Below are positions 12,409 to 19,699 of a stretch of DNA of 64,000 nucleotides, piece by piece. Each line of letters starts with the position of its first letter. Within the stretch, counting starts at the first letter, position 1. The translations under genes and the position numbers were made by a program. Below the pieces are notes generated by a model. The model had not been told where the DNA came from and made no database searches. It was given only the letters and a program-made list of their open reading frames with translations. Origin of the DNA: an uncultured Candidatus Rokubacteria bacterium (GTDB taxonomy: Bacteria > Methylomirabilota > Methylomirabilia > Rokubacteriales > CSP1-6); contig CAWBMV010000001.1 of the NCBI GenBank assembly GCA_963789955.1, positions 128,001 to 192,000 of the forward strand, given 5' to 3'.

Positions 12409-13015
12409 TCACGGCCGTGCGTCGGACGGCGGACCTTGTTGGGCCGACGCATGCGCGGTGACCACGTAGCGCAGCGGACCGCCGGCCACGAGCGCGTCGA
12501 ACGGATAGCAGGTCATCAGCACGAGCGCGGCTGACTCCGGGCTCCGTGCGGATCACGGCGGATCTCGAGTCGACGACCGAGAGCTCGTCCACTCGAAATC
12601 GCCCGCTCGGCCGCCCCGGCACGTCGACGAGGATCTCGTCGCCCCGCTGCAGCCGCTCGAGAAAACGAAAGTGCGTGTCGCGATGCGCCGTCACGATCGC
12701 GGTCCCCGGCTCGCCGGGCGCGGCACTCTGCGGCGCGTGGCCGGGACCGAACGCGAGGGTGCGGCCGCTCACGCCCGTGAGGACGATGAGGTCGACGCCG
12801 TGAGCCGGCACCCGCAGCCTCGCGACCGGCCACGTGTCGGCCCACGGCCACGGCTTGGAGGCCGGCTCGCCCCGGAGCGTGCGCGCCCACGCCCGCTGCA
12901 AGAGGTACTGCGCGAGCTGGGCCTTGGCGTGGATCCACGCGCCGTGGCCCAGCTCCCACGCGCCGAGCGCGGCGAGCAGGGCCACGGCGACGACGATGAT
13001 GCTGCGGCGGTTCAG
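12409..13015 (-). CDS. Class GN (proteobacterial-type) sortase, frameshift near 12535
   Basis: HAKAQLAQYLL..KPWPWADTWPVARL..LAFGPGH..TAHRDTHF, then in the next frame LVLMTCYPFDALVAGGPLRY (His/Cys/Arg triad); start codon uncertain. Confidence 0.9.
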
Positions 13016-15069
13016 ATCTTCCTCGGGTGCCGAGCGCGCCGAGCCGCGGCGGCGAGGACCGCCGCGAGCAGGCAGGCCACGAGGCCGAGCATGACGTGGA
13101 CGGGTGCGTCCGTCGCGCCCTGACCCAGACCGAAGACCGCGGTGTAGTCCCAGCCGTCGGGAAGATTCGTCTTCAGCGCGTGACTCTCGAGTGACTGGTC
13201 TCCCGGGCGGACCGGGGTGACGTCGACGGCGACGAGGCTCGTGTACGGGCTCACCAGGTGGTACGTCAGCGCGAGCTCCAGCACCGAGTGACGGATCTCG
13301 TCCTCGGACGTGCCGGTGCGGCGCCGGTCGAGGAGCGCCGCGATCTTTCCGCTCGCCCAGTACGAAGAAAGGCCGGCGCCCTCGCCGGTCGGGTGGAGCG
13401 TCAGCACGCGCTCCCACACCTCGACGCCGAGGCGACCGCGCAGCACGACCCGCGACGGTAACGCCGGCGCTCTCAGCGCGACGGTGATCGGCTCGCCGAG
13501 ATAGACATCGGGGATCCGCTCGGGCACGATCTCGGCCCCGGCCACGGGCTCGATCTCGACGTCGGTCAGCGCCGGCGCCTCGAGCTTCGCGAAGAGCGTG
13601 ACCATCTTCTCTTTGACCTCGTTGATGCTGCCGATATAGGTGAACGTGCCGCGCCCGACCCGCGCGGCCTCGCGCATGAAGTGGCTGTTGGGCGCCGAGC
13701 CGATGCCGATCGTGAAGAGCCGGCTGTCGCCGAGCCGCTCGTGGATGGCCGCGAAGAGCTGCTGCTCGTTGCCGACCGCGCCGTCGGTCAGGAAGATCAC
13801 CTGCCGCAGACGGCCTGGATGCTCGCGGCCGTCGAGGGCCTGCTGGAGCGCCGGCAGCATTTCGGTGCCGCCGTCGGCGTGAATCCGGCCGACGTAGCGG
13901 TTCGCCGTCGCCAGATTCGGTTGCGTCGCGGCCTGCGCCGCCGCGAACACCGCGTCCGTCGTGTGGTTGAACCGAATCACGTTGAAGGTGTCGCCGGGCT
14001 TCAGCCGCTCGAGCGCGAGCTTCAGGGCGGCCTTGGCCTGATCGATGGACGCGCCGGCCATCGAGCCTGAATTGTCGAGCACGAAGATCACCTCGCGCGG
14101 CAGGCGAAGCCCGTCGAGCGCGCCCGGCGCGGGCGGTGTCACCATGAGAAGGGCGAAGGTCTCCGCGCCTTTCCGCTCGGTGAAGAGCGTGGCGATCGGC
14201 GTGGCTTCGATCGACGGTTGCCAGACCAGCTCGAAGTCGCGATCCGCGGGCACCGTGCCCTGGGCGAGCTCGATCCGGTAGCGCCCGTCGGCCAGCGGCG
14301 TCGTGTGGACCGCGTGATACGAGGCCGTCAGCCGCGCGAGCGGTGTCCCCGGATCCAGCTCGACCGCGAGGCTGACGGGATTCAGCGGGCCCCGCGACGG
14401 GTGCTCGACCGGGGGCGTGATCCGCGAGGCGTCGGGCACCTGGACCGTATCGGACGACCAGCCGGTGCCGCCGGACGGTCCGGGCACCGGTGCGCCCGGG
14501 ATGTAGCGTGGACCCACCACCATCGGGAAGCGCAGACGGAACTGGCCCGAGTCGTATCGAACGGTCTGCTGGTACTCGATCTCGATCGTGATCGCGGCAC
14601 CGGGCGCGATGTTCGCGACCGACGTCGTGAAGATGTTGGGCCGCTCCTGCTCGACGAGGCTCGCGCGCCGGCCTTCGTGCTTCGCTTGCTCGTACTGCGC
14701 CTTGGCCGCCGCCCGCTCCTGAATCACGCCCTCGATCAACCGGTCGCCGACCTTCATGCGGAGATGGTCGACCGCGGCGTCCTCGGGCAACGGGAAGACG
14801 TAGATGCCCTCCGCCCACGCGGCGCTGGGGTTCGTGAACTCCTGACGAACGCTCGCCCGCGCGACGATGCCGGTCACGACGATGTTGACGTCGGTCTTGA
14901 GCGTCGGCGCCGGGACGGGCGTGCTCTGCTCGGCGCTTCGCCAGAACAGCGTGCCCTCGGTGACGCGGTCCGTACGTCCACGCGCGTCACCGGCGACCTC
15001 CGCCCTGGCGGCCGAAGCCGCCAGGACGAAGATCAGACTGACGAGGATCAGTCCTCGAACGCACCGCAT
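13012..15069 (-). CDS. VIT + VWA domain sortase target protein
   Basis: Signal peptide; VIT (EGIYVFPLPEDAAV, EQERPNIFTTSVANI); VWA MIDAS DNSGSM..GGT..FLTDG; C-terminal LGQGAT + TM helix + RRARHPRK tail. Confidence 0.9.
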   Translation of the reverse strand: MRCVRGLILVSLIFVLAASAARAEVAGDARGRTDRVTEGTLFWRSAEQSTPVPAPTLKTDVNIVVTGIVARASVRQEFTNPSAAWAEGIYVFPLPEDAAVDHLRMKVGDRLIEGVIQERAAAKAQYEQAKHEGRRASLVEQERPNIFTTSVANIAPGAAITIEIEYQQTVRYDSGQFRLRFPMVVGPRYIPGAPVPGPSGGTGWSSDTVQVPDASRITPPVEHPSRGPLNPVSLAVELDPGTPLARLTASYHAVHTTPLADGRYRIELAQGTVPADRDFELVWQPSIEATPIATLFTERKGAETFALLMVTPPAPGALDGLRLPREVIFVLDNSGSMAGASIDQAKAALKLALERLKPGDTFNVIRFNHTTDAVFAAAQAATQPNLATANRYVGRIHADGGTEMLPALQQALDGREHPGRLRQVIFLTDGAVGNEQQLFAAIHERLGDSRLFTIGIGSAPNSHFMREAARVGRGTFTYIGSINEVKEKMVTLFAKLEAPALTDVEIEPVAGAEIVPERIPDVYLGEPITVALRAPALPSRVVLRGRLGVEVWERVLTLHPTGEGAGLSSYWASGKIAALLDRRRTGTSEDEIRHSVLELALTYHLVSPYTSLVAVDVTPVRPGDQSLESHALKTNLPDGWDYTAVFGLGQGATDAPVHVMLGLVACLLAAVLAAAARRARHPRKI

Positions 15070-15077
15070 GGATCGGA

Positions 15078-15668
15078 CTACCGATCGCCGGCCGGCGAGG
15101 TGGACTCGGCCGGCACCGCGGCGGCGAGCTTGCGAAACTCGAGGTGCACCCGGCGGTTGATCTCCTGGCACTCCTTGCCAGGGTCGTCGCACAGCGACCC
15201 GTCCGGTCCCATCGTGACCATCTTGATCGCCGGCTCCGGGACGCCCAGGTCGACGAGGAAGCGCTTCACCACCTGAGCCCGACGCTGAGCCAGGCCGCGG
15301 TTGTACTCGGCCGGGCCCTGGTTATCGGTGTAGCCCTGGACCATCACGACCCACGAGTTGGTCAGGTCCATCCGTCCCGTCGTCTCCTGGAGCACGCGGG
15401 CCGCGTCGGCGCGAAGGCGCGTGCTCTTGAAGTCGAAGTAGACGTCGGCGTGGAAGACTCCCGCCGGCGGCGCGGGAATCACGGCACGAGGGCCCGTCGG
15501 CGCCGCGGCGCCCTTTCCCGTATCCGCGCCCGTGCCGGACGCCGCCTCGACCCCTTGCGAGTGAACCCAGTACGTTCCGATCGCTCCGGCGATCACCGTG
15601 AAGAGGATCCCGACGAGGATCACCAGCTCCTTCACACCACCGATCTCCTTCCGCTGCATCTCGCCCAT
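15078..15668 (-). CDS. OmpA-like peptidoglycan-binding protein with N-terminal TM anchor (PdsO-like position)
   Basis: VYFDFKS, VQGYTDNQGPAEYNRGLAQRRA, NRRV. Confidence 0.85.
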   Translation of the reverse strand: MGEMQRKEIGGVKELVILVGILFTVIAGAIGTYWVHSQGVEAASGTGADTGKGAAAPTGPRAVIPAPPAGVFHADVYFDFKSTRLRADAARVLQETTGRMDLTNSWVVMVQGYTDNQGPAEYNRGLAQRRAQVVKRFLVDLGVPEPAIKMVTMGPDGSLCDDPGKECQEINRRVHLEFRKLAAAVPAESTSPAGDR

Positions 15669-15760
15669 TGGCCCTGTCCCTTCTTTCTCGAGACGTCGTG
15701 CGTCTCGTTGGTCGGGTCGCTCGTGCCGCCTGTACGGCCGGCGCCCGGCTCGAGATGCAG

Positions 15761-15776
15761 AGCAACGCGCACGCCA
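15761..15776 (-). promoter_or_regulatory. Sigma54 (-24/-12) promoter for the OmpA-VIT/VWA-sortase genes
   Basis: Minus strand reads TGGCGTGCGCGTTGCT (GG-N10-GC), about 90 nt upstream of the OmpA start. Confidence 0.7.
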
Positions 15777-15863
15777 CGCCGGCCGTACGCGTTCGTGGTG
15801 CGGGAATGCAACGACTTCGAGAGACTTGGGCGTGCGAAGTGGCGGGCGGCCGATCGACGGGAC

Positions 15864-15886
15864 GCGGGGAATCCCCGCATCCCCGC
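15864..15886. promoter_or_regulatory. Candidate upstream activator sequence for the sigma54 activator
   Basis: Palindrome GCGGGGA-A-TCCCCGC with a tandem ATCCCCGC repeat, about 90-110 bp upstream of the -24 element. Confidence 0.4.
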
Positions 15887-15914
15887 ACGGCTCCCGCGCT
15901 GACCGGGCGAGCGG

Positions 15915-18419
15915 TCAGACCTTGGCGGTCGGCGAGCGGCGGTCGAGGTGCTGGCGGACGAGGAGCTCCAGCGAGCGGAAGTGGCGCTCGGGGAGGTTCT
16001 TGAAACGCTTCCGGCAGGCGGCGACGGCCTCGTCCGGCGAGCTGAAGCCTTCGACCACCCTCAGCAGGTGGTCGGAGTATTCGCGGAGCTTCAGCTCGAC
16101 CGTCCGGCCGAGCGCCGGGTCGCCCGCCAGGGCCAGGGCGGCCTTGCCGCGATCACCCTGCGCGTCGACCAGGGCCCGGAACCCGAGGCCCTTGAGCCGC
16201 TGGGTCACCGTGCTGCGATCCCAGCCGAGCGCGCGCGCGGTGGCCTGCATGTCGAAGCCGTGCTCGCGCAGGGAGGTCAGGACGGCCTCGTCGCCTCCGG
16301 AATCATCGTGGCTCTGCTCCCGGGCCGGAAGACGCAGGTCGGCGACCGTGAGGGCGGCGCCGTCGGCCAGAGCCAGCGCCTGGCGCAGACAGTTCTGGAG
16401 CTCACGGGCGTTGCCGGGCCAGTCGTTCCGCTCGAGCGCGGCGAGCGCGGCCTCGGACAGGGGCAGGGGCGGTCGTCCGACCTCGGCGGCGGCCTCGCGG
16501 ACGAAGCGCGCGGCCAGGAGCGAAACGTCCCGCGGCCGCTCGCGCAGCGGCGGCAGCCGCAAGACGAGCCCCTTCAGGCGGAAATAGAGATCCTCGCGGA
16601 ACCACCCCTCGGCGCTGCCTCGCTCGAGATCGCGATTGCTCGCGGCGACGATACGCACGTCGACGGTGGTCGGGCGGGTTCCGCCGACGCGATAGAAGCT
16701 CTTGTCCTGGAGCACCCGCAGGAGCTTGCTCTGGTGCTCCGCTCGGAGCTCGCCGACCTCGTCGAGGAAGATCGTTCCACGGTTGGCTTGCTCGAAGAGC
16801 CCTTTCCGGTCGGCGACCGCGCCCGTGAAGCTGCCGCGAACGTGGCCGAACATCTCGCTCTCGAAGAGCTCGGCGGGGATCGCGCCCATGTTGACCGCGA
16901 CGAACGGCGCCTCGGCGCGCGCGCTCAGCCGGTGGGCCGCCCGAGCGAACAGCTCCTTGCCGGTGCCCGGCTCGCCGGCGAGGAGGATCGGCAAGGCGGA
17001 GCGCGCGGCCTTCTCGAGGTCGCGGAAGAGCGCGAGCATCGCGGGATCGCGGGTGACGATGCCAAGTCGTTCGGCCTCGCGCTGCAGGCGCTCGAGCTCC
17101 GCGTCGCCGAGCGGCGCCTCGCCGACGTCGGCGGCGCTCGCCGCCCGCACGCGCTGCTCCAGCTCTTCGAGCCGGGCGCGTGTGCGCTCTTCCTGGTCGC
17201 GCGCGGCCGCGAGCTGCGCCCGCAACGCCGCCTCACCACCGCTCGATCGAGCCACCGCGGCTCGCGCCGCTTCCAGGTCTTCTTCGAGCGCCTCGACCGC
17301 CGACTCTTGACGCACGAGGCCCTCGCGGATCGCCGTGACTTCGCCCTCGAGATGGCGAACCCGGTAGGCCGAGCCGATCTGGGTCCAGACGAGCGCGCTC
17401 GCCGAGGCAACAGCCGTCGCGAGCAGCGGGATCGCTACCGGCAGGAGAAGGCCGATGATCGACGCCGCGAGTGCGACGCTCACGATGTAGCCGAGGGTCA
17501 GGACGGCGCCCGCGATCCCGGCCTTCCACCATCTGGCCGTCAGCCAGAGCCACGCCGCCAGGGCCGAGAGCAGGATGCTGCCGAGCACGGTCACCGGGAT
17601 TGGTGTTTCTCTCAGCCACGTGCCCGCCCGAGCCCTGTCGAACAGCCGCGCGTGAACGAGGGTCCGAGACATTCCAGCCCGGGGCTCGGCCAGGACGAGC
17701 ACGGTCCTGTCGGCGACCAGGCTCCGGAGCGCTTCCGGCTGGCGCTCTTCGATCGGAGACCAGATGTCGGCAAAGTTGACGACCTGGACGCGCGGTATTC
17801 GCGAGCCTCCCGTGGCCACCAGCACCTGTCCGTGTCGATCGACCGGGATTCGAGCGGTATCGACCTTCGTGAGCGCGGCGGCCAGCGCCAGGCCGTATGC
17901 GGGCACTCGTCGCTCGCCCACGCGGACGAACAGCGGCACTCGCCGAACGACGCCGTCGAGATCGGCGACGGTGAGCGTGTGCCCCACGCCGTTCGCGTGC
18001 TGCGCGAATGCCGGTAGCGATGCGGGGGCGGCGGGCTCGAGCGTGATCGCGAGCACGACGTTCTCCGCGTGCGCGATCGCCTGACTCAGGAGCACATCGC
18101 TCGCGGCGCCGCCGCGGCCCGGCGCGCTCGGCTGGTCGAGCGAGGCCTCCAGACCGATGACGGCGGCACCAGCCTGGGACAGCCCCGTGACGAGACGGGC
18201 GAGCACCGTTCGATCCCAGACGCCCTGGCCAAACCGGGATTCGCTCGCCGGGTCACGAACGACCACGATCGGCGGCTGGCCCGAGGGCTGCCGCACGGGA
18301 AGCCACTCGTAGACAGACCACTCGAACGCGGCGACCGCTGCGCCGTCGGACAGGGCCGCGCCGGCGGCGAGAGCGGTGGCTACCAGTGCGATCACCGCGG
18401 CCAGCGCCACGGTTCTCAT
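15915..18419 (-). CDS. Membrane-bound sigma54 enhancer-binding protein: CHASE2 - TM helices - coiled coil - AAA+ - HTH - C-terminal extension
   Basis: CHASE2 motifs (WDRTVLARLV..GAAVIGLE, DLDGVVRRVPL); GEPGTGKE, ESEMFGHVRGSFTGA, FLDEV, WPGNAREL; TARALGWDRSTV. Confidence 0.9.
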   Translation of the reverse strand: MRTVALAAVIALVATALAAGAALSDGAAVAAFEWSVYEWLPVRQPSGQPPIVVVRDPASESRFGQGVWDRTVLARLVTGLSQAGAAVIGLEASLDQPSAPGRGGAASDVLLSQAIAHAENVVLAITLEPAAPASLPAFAQHANGVGHTLTVADLDGVVRRVPLFVRVGERRVPAYGLALAAALTKVDTARIPVDRHGQVLVATGGSRIPRVQVVNFADIWSPIEERQPEALRSLVADRTVLVLAEPRAGMSRTLVHARLFDRARAGTWLRETPIPVTVLGSILLSALAAWLWLTARWWKAGIAGAVLTLGYIVSVALAASIIGLLLPVAIPLLATAVASASALVWTQIGSAYRVRHLEGEVTAIREGLVRQESAVEALEEDLEAARAAVARSSGGEAALRAQLAAARDQEERTRARLEELEQRVRAASAADVGEAPLGDAELERLQREAERLGIVTRDPAMLALFRDLEKAARSALPILLAGEPGTGKELFARAAHRLSARAEAPFVAVNMGAIPAELFESEMFGHVRGSFTGAVADRKGLFEQANRGTIFLDEVGELRAEHQSKLLRVLQDKSFYRVGGTRPTTVDVRIVAASNRDLERGSAEGWFREDLYFRLKGLVLRLPPLRERPRDVSLLAARFVREAAAEVGRPPLPLSEAALAALERNDWPGNARELQNCLRQALALADGAALTVADLRLPAREQSHDDSGGDEAVLTSLREHGFDMQATARALGWDRSTVTQRLKGLGFRALVDAQGDRGKAALALAGDPALGRTVELKLREYSDHLLRVVEGFSSPDEAVAACRKRFKNLPERHFRSLELLVRQHLDRRSPTAKV

Positions 18420-19699
18420 TGCGAGGGTGGGACAGCCTCGGGGGCGATCGAGATCTCCTGGAGGAGCCGCTGGGCGTCTTCGTGCGGTGTCGACTTCAGG
18501 AGGCTGATCGCGCGGGCGGTGTCCTTCGGCACGCCGAGCCCCGCGGCGTAGACCTTCGCGAGGGTGATCCGGGCTCGCACTTGCCCCTCGTCCGCGGCGG
18601 TCTTGAAGTAGCCCAGGATCCGCGCGTCGTACGGAGCGATCTGGGCAGGAGCGCCGTGATAGTAGAGCTCTTCCAGGAGCGCCTGTGCCGGCTCGCTGAA
18701 GGCGAGCGCCTCGGAGATCAGCACGGGCACCGCGTCGGCGCCGCGGCCCTGCCGGAGCAGCGCGCCGCCGACCGTGTCGTCGTCGCCGGTTCGCGTCAGC
18801 TCCGGGTAGTCGCTCCAGAGCCCGGTTCGATAGTCTCGAAAGGCCTGCTCGATCGCGCGACGCTCGGCCGGCGTGCGCCGGGTCCTGCCGAGGGCCGTCT
18901 GCCGCAGCTCGCCGAGGGCGGCGGCGGCCTCGAGCGAGCCCTGATCGGCCGCGCGCGACCACCACGCGATCGCGCGCGCGGTGTCGGGCTCGACGCCGAG
19001 GCCCCTCGCGTACGCGATGCCCGCGAAGAACTGCGCCCGAGGGTGCCCCGCGCGCGCCGCGACCACGAATTCCGGCGTCGCCTCGGCGTCGCGATGGGTC
19101 AGCTTCAGCACGAGGGCCAGGTTGTAGCGCACGTCCGGTTGGTCAGGGCTGCGGGAAATGGCCTGGCGGTACGCCTCGATCGCCCCGTTCAGATCGCCGA
19201 GCGCGTAGCGCACGAGCCCGAGGCTGTAGAGCGCCGAAACCTGATCCGGTTGCCGGCGGAGGACGTCTTCGAGCTCGGAGCGTGCGGCGGGCCAATCCTG
19301 CTTCGCCATGAGCGCCGTGGCGAGGACGTACCGCGCGCGCACGGCGTCCGGCCGCTGGCGCAGGAGGGCCCGAAGCTCCTCGACGGCGCCGTCGAGGTCG
19401 CCCATCTCGTAGAGGGCGAGCCCGAGATTTTCTCGCGCGTCGGCGAGATCGGGCTGAAGGCGGAGCGCCTCGCGAAACGATGCCGCAGCGGTCGCCGCGT
19501 CGCCGCGCGCCATCGCCGCGCGACCGAGCGCCAGATGCTCGCGGGCCCGTACCTCACGCGGTGACCCGCTCGCGGCCGAGGTGGCCGGCGCGGGATCGCC
19601 GATGGCGCCGGTTGGAGTCGTCGAGCGCGGAGCGCTGCCGGTCGAGCACCCGGTTCCGATCGCGGCGAGGAGCGCGAGGCTGACGGTCGTCGAGCGCAT
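18416..19699 (-). CDS. TPR + Sel1-repeat lipoprotein
   Basis: Lipobox-like LLAAIGTGC; multiple TPRs; Sel1 repeats (AQFFAGIAYARGLGVEPD..WWSRAADQG); stop overlaps activator ATG. Confidence 0.85.
   Translation of the reverse strand: MRSTTVSLALLAAIGTGCSTGSAPRSTTPTGAIGDPAPATSAASGSPREVRAREHLALGRAAMARGDAATAAASFREALRLQPDLADARENLGLALYEMGDLDGAVEELRALLRQRPDAVRARYVLATALMAKQDWPAARSELEDVLRRQPDQVSALYSLGLVRYALGDLNGAIEAYRQAISRSPDQPDVRYNLALVLKLTHRDAEATPEFVVAARAGHPRAQFFAGIAYARGLGVEPDTARAIAWWSRAADQGSLEAAAALGELRQTALGRTRRTPAERRAIEQAFRDYRTGLWSDYPELTRTGDDDTVGGALLRQGRGADAVPVLISEALAFSEPAQALLEELYYHGAPAQIAPYDARILGYFKTAADEGQVRARITLAKVYAAGLGVPKDTARAISLLKSTPHEDAQRLLQEISIAPEAVPPSQ

Follow-up and report, generated by a model that had tools for sequence, protein, structure and literature searches.

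We describe here a five-gene locus on the minus strand of a 64,000-nucleotide stretch of DNA (the window; coordinates are counted from its first letter) from an uncultured Candidatus Rokubacteria bacterium, a soil bacterium whose genome is 87% complete (assembly GCA_963789955.1, contig CAWBMV010000001.1, positions 128,001 to 192,000). The locus encodes a TPR/Sel1 repeat protein, a sigma-54 activator with a CHASE2 domain and predicted membrane helices, an OmpA_C-domain protein (gene ompA), a VIT-VWA sortase target and a class GN sortase. We propose that it contains a one-component trans-membrane sigma-54 switch that is prompted by the TPR protein and drives the ompA operon, an explanation to which, taken as a whole, we assign a probability of about 0.65. 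A preliminary description had set out this gene order together with an ATGA overlap, a sigma-54 box and an enhancer, and all of these are present. In the mechanism we envisage, the exported TPR/Sel1 protein may contact the periplasmic CHASE2 domain, and the resulting change in CHASE2 may pass through the last membrane helix and a 100-residue coiled coil, permitting the AAA+ domains to form a ring; on firmer grounds, the activator would bind a palindromic enhancer and loop to the sigma-54 polymerase on one face of the DNA helix, switching on the operon headed by ompA; in the window, that operon carries the sortase target and the sortase as its cargo. To judge from that cargo, the trigger would be envelope or peptidoglycan damage and the output envelope protection. 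The scheme is anchored by the domain order of the activator, the linkage of the genes, the conservation of enhancer and box, and an invariant recognition helix in the helix-turn-helix (HTH) motif.

The activator gene (15915..18419, minus strand) encodes an 834-residue protein with, in order, a membrane helix, CHASE2, three further predicted membrane helices, a coiled coil, an AAA+ domain, a Fis-type HTH and an extra helical C-terminal domain. Pfam profile searches match CHASE2 (PF05226) to residues 17-242 (E = 5.1e-27; 95.5 bits against a cut-off of 26.3), in agreement with the preliminary assignment of the N-terminus, and the sigma-54 AAA+ domain (PF00158) to residues 454-619 (E = 5.5e-63); the Fis HTH lies at residues 717-743, and no receiver domain is among the Pfam matches. 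Hydropathy marks hydrophobic segments at 4-22, 276-294 and 312-330, and a structure model places helices at 2-24, 274-294 and 297-321, then one continuous helix at 329-427, with CHASE2 after the first helix. From the model and the hydropathy together, the activator is predicted to cross the membrane four times, placing CHASE2 on the outer side and the ATPase on the inner, and the position of PF05226, with one membrane helix N-terminal to it and three more after it, fits the layout of CHASE2 sensors. The full-length model is confident over approximately the first 420 residues and poor in its AAA+ part, the alignment covering only the first 400 residues. A Foldseek search with this model, in which the AAA+ part is poor, returned activators only and nothing for CHASE2, and a sequence search gave no solved CHASE2 structure.

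The loop of the AAA+ domain reads GSFTGA in the window instead of GAFTGA, and the same is true of 64 of 77 activator sequences, 8 having GAFTGA; Walker A, Walker B and the loop Phe and Thr are kept, the last two being described as critical residues of sigma-54 activators in PMC3162934. The HTH residues WDRSTVTQ are invariant (56/56 sequences). To judge by its domains, loop and HTH, the activator is a true enhancer-binding protein; it scores below every NCBIfam equivalog cut-off shown. The approximately 90 residues C-terminal to the HTH form a conserved helical domain (mean predicted local distance difference test score, pLDDT, 86), for which there was no structural match at E 0.001 and no Atlas match at 0.9. 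The window genome also contains a second, distant CHASE2-like match (G000:C3:164029-164712, E = 1e-6).

The gene immediately upstream of the activator (18416..19699, minus strand) encodes a 427-residue protein with TPR and Sel1 Pfam matches and overlaps the activator gene in an ATGA at 18419-18416. Such a TPR gene directly precedes the activator in 64 of the 65 loci with room to see it, across two phyla, and the protein family has many invariant residues. In the window it is a predicted lipoprotein (Cys18) with a lipobox-like IGTGC; by a pattern, a lipobox-like Cys is present in 27 of 33 Methylomirabilota-type loci versus 2 of 29 in Nitrospirota, where the signal peptide looks ordinary by eye. 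Export of the TPR protein thus appears to be conserved but lipidation does not, and since the lipobox seems to be a feature of the Rokubacteria, a lipid anchor should not be required for the relay. When CHASE2 (residues 26-272) was modelled in complex with the TPR protein (residues 48-420), the scores were 0.51, 0.41 and 0.51, compared with 0.01 for the best of three controls; the runs share at least 76% of contacts and the partners have pLDDT values of at least 89. The verdict is weak support, because although 116 of the 157 solved pairs and just 2 of the 215 mismatched ones attained the mark, only 18 of these solved pairs, but both mismatches, did so with scores of 0.60 or below. Given the linkage and the complex score, we think it probable that the TPR protein and CHASE2 are physical partners and that the TPR protein is the activator's signalling partner. 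The relay from lipoprotein to CHASE2 drawn in the preliminary description is thus retained as to its two proteins, and its lipid anchor is not.

The alternative that fares best, and which we nevertheless consider improbable, is that the activator does drive the ompA operon but that CHASE2 itself senses a small ligand or the state of the envelope, the TPR protein being a scaffold, chaperone or inhibitor. The modest complex score, the variable lipid anchor and the occurrence of some divergent CHASE2 activators with no TPR match nearby would all sit comfortably with this, as would the fact that CHASE2 has no known ligand (PMC5192318); the almost unbroken linkage in two phyla, the ATGA coupling in the window, the invariant TPR residues and a model score well over all three controls speak instead for the TPR protein as the source of the signal.

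How the signal would cross the membrane raises a second alternative, that the activator becomes active only once proteolysis frees a soluble part comprising coiled coil, AAA+ domain and HTH. From what is generally known of bacterial enhancer-binding proteins, a hexameric ring that loops DNA should be harder to assemble when tethered, and the conserved C-terminal domain without structural match could be accommodated here; however, no protease gene recurs among the annotated clustered neighbours (24 representatives scanned), and the 100-residue helix runs on from the last membrane segment, as fits mechanical transmission. We regard release by proteolysis as quite unlikely and favour a tethered activator.

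The DNA between the activator and ompA carries the elements through which the activator would work. The ompA gene (15078..15668, minus strand) heads the target operon, and upstream of it is a sigma-54 -24/-12 box, TGGCGTGCGCGTTGCT (15761..15776, minus strand), with a predicted transcription start at approximately 15750. Nowhere else in the window is the pattern of this sequence, divided as TGGCGT-GCGCG-TTGCT (15776-15761), matched, and 4 of 100 shuffles also gave a match; alone the box would be modest evidence, and its weight comes from its conservation. The preliminary description had placed a candidate upstream activating sequence (UAS) about 100 bp from the box, and a putative enhancer (15863..15887, minus strand) is indeed found there, consisting of a palindrome, TGCGGGG-ATT-CCCCGCG (15879-15863), 86 bp upstream of the box and an extra half-site a further 8 bp upstream. 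Within the interval is a partly conserved AAGT-containing box, seen by eye (15805..15829, minus strand), which is a possible integration host factor (IHF) site. The family motif of the enhancer is TGCGGGG-N3/4-CCCCGCA, and both elements recur in relatives: among the 62 ompA loci with upstream DNA (counting the window and five added Nitrospirota loci), 60 have a sigma-54 box and 56 have in addition the palindrome with at most two mismatches.

The distances between palindrome and box cluster at 42, 52, 62-64, 74-76, 83-87, 92-93, 102-106 and 116 bp and are periodic at 10.4-10.5 bp (R = 0.61 over 18 distinct values; permutation p = 0.0003), and three sites read later have distances of 42, 64 and 93 bp. 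Spacing by whole helical turns is what is predicted for a protein that loops to the promoter from one face of the helix, and it is not predicted for a terminator. The palindrome also follows the activator among genomes. Of 200 Methylomirabilota genomes, 35 have it in its extended form, and every one of these belongs to the 47 with the activator and none to the 153 without (reversed control, 0). Among Nitrospirota, a perfect palindrome occurs in 17 of the 31 genomes with the activator versus 4 of 170 others, the latter being the level of the reversed control (3/201). Within a genome, enhancer and box stay with ompA and not with the activator gene, also where other genes intervene: the motif lies up to 9 kb from the activator gene in the loci examined, approximately 14 kb from it in genome G205 and 12 kb in G208, and in G367 the distance is 2.1 Mb.

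The window genome contains rpoN and three palindromes with at most one mismatch, of which only the copy at this locus has a sigma-54 box, along with six two-mismatch sites with loose boxes. A genome-wide regulon was considered for this genome and rejected, there being only one strong enhancer-promoter site, and the regulon of the activator usually appears to be a single promoter. On this evidence the activator very probably drives the ompA promoter. That the palindrome is instead a terminator, an RNA hairpin or a repeat, with another sigma-54 activator running the promoter and the neighbourhood merely historical, is very unlikely, for although the Rokubacteria palindrome is G+C-rich and lies just past the activator stop codon, and the genome has many other sigma-54 activators, no T run follows it, it accompanies ompA when the genes are far apart, there is usually one copy per genome, it is in helical phase with the box, and it is missing from all 153 genomes without the activator.

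Some loci depart from the single-promoter arrangement. At L022 and L120 (G014:C27) a single region holds three enhancer-promoter copies, a pair of ompA genes and part of a second activator, and the promoter that comes first would drive a gene other than ompA. In genome G128 a second enhancer and sigma-54 box are located far from the activator (L150:4117-5055; G128:C320), before a gene for an SPFH/Band 7 lipoprotein, which is a putative extra member of the regulon. Several Nitrospira (L075:10580-13732; L078; L087) have a glycosyltransferase-2/polysaccharide deacetylase gene and an acyltransferase gene between activator and ompA, with no enhancer seen before them.

A search with the C-terminal part of the activator identified 1,076 proteins and 297 stretches in species genomes, and the best 79 of these 297 loci were examined. 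Nearly all of the 79 are titled Rokubacteria/Methylomirabilota or Nitrospirota, with two Myxococcales bins and one unclassified bacterium; the host range of the module may exceed Rokubacteria and Nitrospirota, as the 218 other stretches lie outside this set. The activator is present in 47 of 200 Methylomirabilota genomes, all within the window's family, and in 31 of 201 Nitrospirota genomes. An ompA gene is seen at 56 of the 79 loci, and 19 loci end within 9 kb of the activator. Nitrospirota also have more divergent CHASE2 sigma-54 activators (L140-L145 and L149; 27-43% identity); upstream of three of them lies a TPR protein of greater length, the other four gave no TPR match, and none has ompA nearby. 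At one Nitrospira locus (L093:3943-10435) the TPR-activator pair is in tandem duplicate with both activator copies apparently broken.

What follows ompA is variable. Among 47 judgeable loci, 25 have the sortase target behind ompA, two a sortase remnant, two an alpha-2-macroglobulin, two YfaA/YfaT/YfaS-like genes, two uncharacterised genes, and 14 nothing matching the queries. An alpha-2-macroglobulin gene followed by PBP1C stands in place of target and sortase at L117:4379-12576, and alternative cargo likewise replaces the pair behind ompA at L044:11960-18763 and from L055:7431 onward. The converse association is strong, as the preliminary expectation that activator and cassette co-occur elsewhere would have it: in the window's family 25 of 30 target-bearing genomes carry the activator (among the remaining five, the target of three is preceded by ompA at the start of a contig, one target match begins at a contig end and one is weak), and in Nitrospirota all 16 genomes with an above-cut-off target carry it, the target being at most 20 kb downstream in 14. 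Of the 47 activator-bearing Methylomirabilota genomes, 22 gave no target match. Since the target is almost always found with the activator and the activator often without the target, the sortase pair reads as exchangeable cargo, with TPR protein, activator and ompA as the core. The locus is accordingly misnamed as a self-contained sortase system; its near-constant unit is the TPR gene, the activator and the promoter with ompA. Two close relatives have, behind either ompA or the sortase, tandem paralogues of 215-324 amino acids (L016:7404-9903; L120:138-2382; L022:13094-13921), a family with no Pfam, NCBIfam or Atlas match.

In the window the target and sortase both score above their family cut-offs. 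The target (13012..15069, minus strand) belongs to the SO2195 family (TIGR03788, 770.4 bits against a cut-off of 551.65) and ends in LGQGAT, a membrane helix and a basic tail, and the sortase (12409..13015, minus strand) is above the cut-off of TIGR03784 from its first frame piece alone (165.9 versus 158.25 bits). Assignment of the OmpA protein as PdsO was considered and rejected, its match to TIGR03789 being 35.8 bits against a cut-off of 152.2; it has an N-terminal membrane helix (residues 15-33), and its OmpA domain retains an Asp and an Arg that are, we presume, the peptidoglycan-binding residues. No ATG, GTG or TTG codon precedes the membrane helix of the sortase, and there is a CTG within CTGA at 13015-13012, behind GAGGAAG; the sortase probably starts at this CTG, overlapping the target stop codon. 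The sortase of a relative (L017) has the same CTG, and other relatives have ATG or GTG there.

The sortase frame shifts at approximately 12534, between the catalytic His and the Cys and Arg, which are in the second frame. This is most likely an assembly error, because near-identical contigs from three of four runs have one base fewer at this position; the fourth run has no depth there, and one 2,179-base contig spans the site with 30 differences. A pseudogene was also considered and rejected, as the reading frame is intact in the near-identical contigs, and the catalytic His-Cys-Arg is intact in these and in most relatives. The open reading frame list appears to have frame changes elsewhere in the window too, at approximately 9270, 10200, 21300 and 22200, in genes that by eye encode a small TPR protein, a phosphotransferase and RidA-like and DinB-like proteins, suggesting an indel-prone assembly. 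Six RNA runs contain part of the stretch (best share 0.35) and are not counted here as expression evidence.

The sorting signal of the target, LGQGAT, is not of the LPxTG type. In 36 rows of sorting signals (near-duplicates included), 25 from activator-linked Rokubacteria have xGQGA[TS] and six from Nitrospirota have LP[QRK]T[AG]T, the sister family has LPKTAT (1) or LPQGAT (2), and two are unreadable. As its catalytic motifs are kept, the sortase probably reads the proline-free signal. For the Shewanella protein SO2195, PMC13712847 leaves open its cleavage and anchoring by the sortase as well as the anchoring site.

The same cargo occurs under a different kind of regulator close by in the phylogeny. 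In the window genome there is no PdsS or PdsR above cut-off at its 87% completeness (best matches, TIGR03785 with 114.8 of 612.2 bits and TIGR03787 with 137.6 of 335.7 bits). The activator is in none of 16 genomes of a sister family, f4, and in all four of its genomes with an above-cut-off target there is a target-sortase pair that lacks ompA and is transcribed divergently from genes for a response regulator and a kinase, whose best matches are to PdsR, at 245 of 336 bits, and to ChvG, at 245 of 740. No sigma-54 box was seen in the two f4 promoters inspected, and in a quick, midpoint-rooted tree the f4 targets are a clade of their own (Shimodaira-Hasegawa-like approximate likelihood ratio test 100) apart from the activator-linked Rokubacteria and Nitrospirota targets. 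A single order thus has the same sortase cargo under regulators of two different kinds. The preliminary description had the kinase and regulator pair replaced by the membrane relay; the substitution itself agrees with the lack of PdsS and PdsR matches above cut-off and with the two-component system of the sister family, and the order of events lies outside the claim.

As to what the switch responds to, PMC13712847 reports that Shewanella pdsO-SO2195-SO2196 is induced by PghKR upon peptidoglycan damage, that SO2195 keeps envelope integrity under cell-wall stress, and that SO2195 homologues are known in Nitrospira. The role of SO2195 in Shewanella and the envelope-type alternative cargo make envelope damage the likely input. 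More tentatively, at somewhat less than even odds, we suggest an envelope-stress relay in full, in which the TPR protein docks on CHASE2 and a tethered ring loops the DNA, with no phosphotransfer, and drives plug-in envelope-protection cargo (sortase target, alpha-2-macroglobulins or SPFH lipoprotein) in Nitrospirota and Rokubacteria; a protein would thereby be defined as the partner of CHASE2, and a signal lacking proline would be assigned to a Gram-negative sortase.

Several observations weigh against a TPR-prompted switch dedicated to ompA and its envelope cargo. Most members of the activator family have GSFTGA; around two dozen other sigma-54 activators in the genome (24 matches scored) could read the promoter; one locus, L055, has no TPR gene, and the four divergent CHASE2 activators at L143-L145 and L149 have no TPR match. 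Four Nitrospirota loci are without ompA in approximately 10 kb, although in two of them (L081 and L087) it lies at a greater distance. Because activator loci supplied the palindrome pattern, the joint occurrence of palindrome and activator is to some extent circular wherever they adjoin, and the related genomes are not independent, kinship inflating the enhancer and promoter counts; Fisher tests, which take no account of kinship, are given no weight here. Envelope protection as the output is supported by 29 of the 47 judgeable loci and two sortase remnants, 14 having nothing recognisable and two being uncharacterised.

If the proposal is correct, five genes, with members in Nitrospira, provide CHASE2 with both a candidate partner and a direct read-out in transcription, and coupling the periplasm to transcription through a membrane-embedded sigma-54 activator would be unusual. 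That this relay and a two-component system can be swapped over one sortase cargo suggests that both receive an envelope-damage input, and the series LPxTA, LPQGA, LGQGA bears on the role of Gram-negative sortases. A membrane sigma-54 activator with CHASE2 input is not described in the literature we found: there was no paper combining CHASE2 with an enhancer-binding protein, CHASE2 with sigma54 and transmembrane, or Rokubacteria with sortase, most subscription papers and supplements (for example the neighbourhoods in Fig. 7B of PMC13712847) being outside our reach.

The module resembles several known systems in part. ToxR/ToxS and the CadC-type regulators likewise combine sensing and DNA binding in a single membrane protein whose partner is in the periplasm or the membrane, but are winged-helix proteins that work with sigma-70 and have no ATPase; a further parallel is NsrA, which reportedly has TPR repeats and which we take up again below. 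With the bacterial enhancer-binding proteins NtrC1, NifA, ZraR and PspF the activator shares the AAA+ domain, the Walker motifs, the Phe/Thr loop and the Fis HTH, and it differs in being a predicted integral membrane protein that takes its input through a periplasmic CHASE2, has a coiled coil of unusual length for its class and ends in an additional helical domain. The Pds/Pgh system of Shewanella (PdsS/PdsR = PghK/PghR with pdsO-SO2195-SO2196), as described in PMC13712847, bioRxiv 10.1101/2023.05.05.539549 and PMC11580497, has the same order of OmpA-like protein, TIGR03788 target and TIGR03784 sortase and an adjacent dedicated regulator, whereas the module here has neither PdsS/PdsR nor PdsO above cut-off, an N-terminal helix on the OmpA protein, a sigma-54 promoter with enhancer, a one-component membrane activator, LGQGAT as its signal and an optional sortase pair. 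PrsK/PrsR/PrsT of the PEP-CTERM/exosortase systems, also inferred from genomes and described in PMC1569441, is alike in joining a sorting system to a sigma-54 box with upstream enhancer, a sigma-54 activator and a TPR lipoprotein; there a histidine kinase acts on an activator with a receiver domain, whereas here there is one chain without a receiver, a true sortase and one target, and matches to PrsR (TIGR02915, 277.5 of 502.6 bits) and PrsT (TIGR02917, 70.2 of 312.2) are below cut-off. The closest parallel for the input is in S. meliloti, where PMC13001267 and PMC7529298 describe CHASE2 inner-membrane sensors, the adenylate cyclases CyaK, CyaD1 and CyaD2, that are fed and activated via a separate envelope protein, NsrA (PMC13001267), although the output there is cyclic AMP and the partner an outer-membrane beta-barrel. 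Judged by its gene and domain content, the module belongs to none of the Pds/Pgh, PrsK/PrsR/PrsT and NsrA-CyaK systems and combines features of each.

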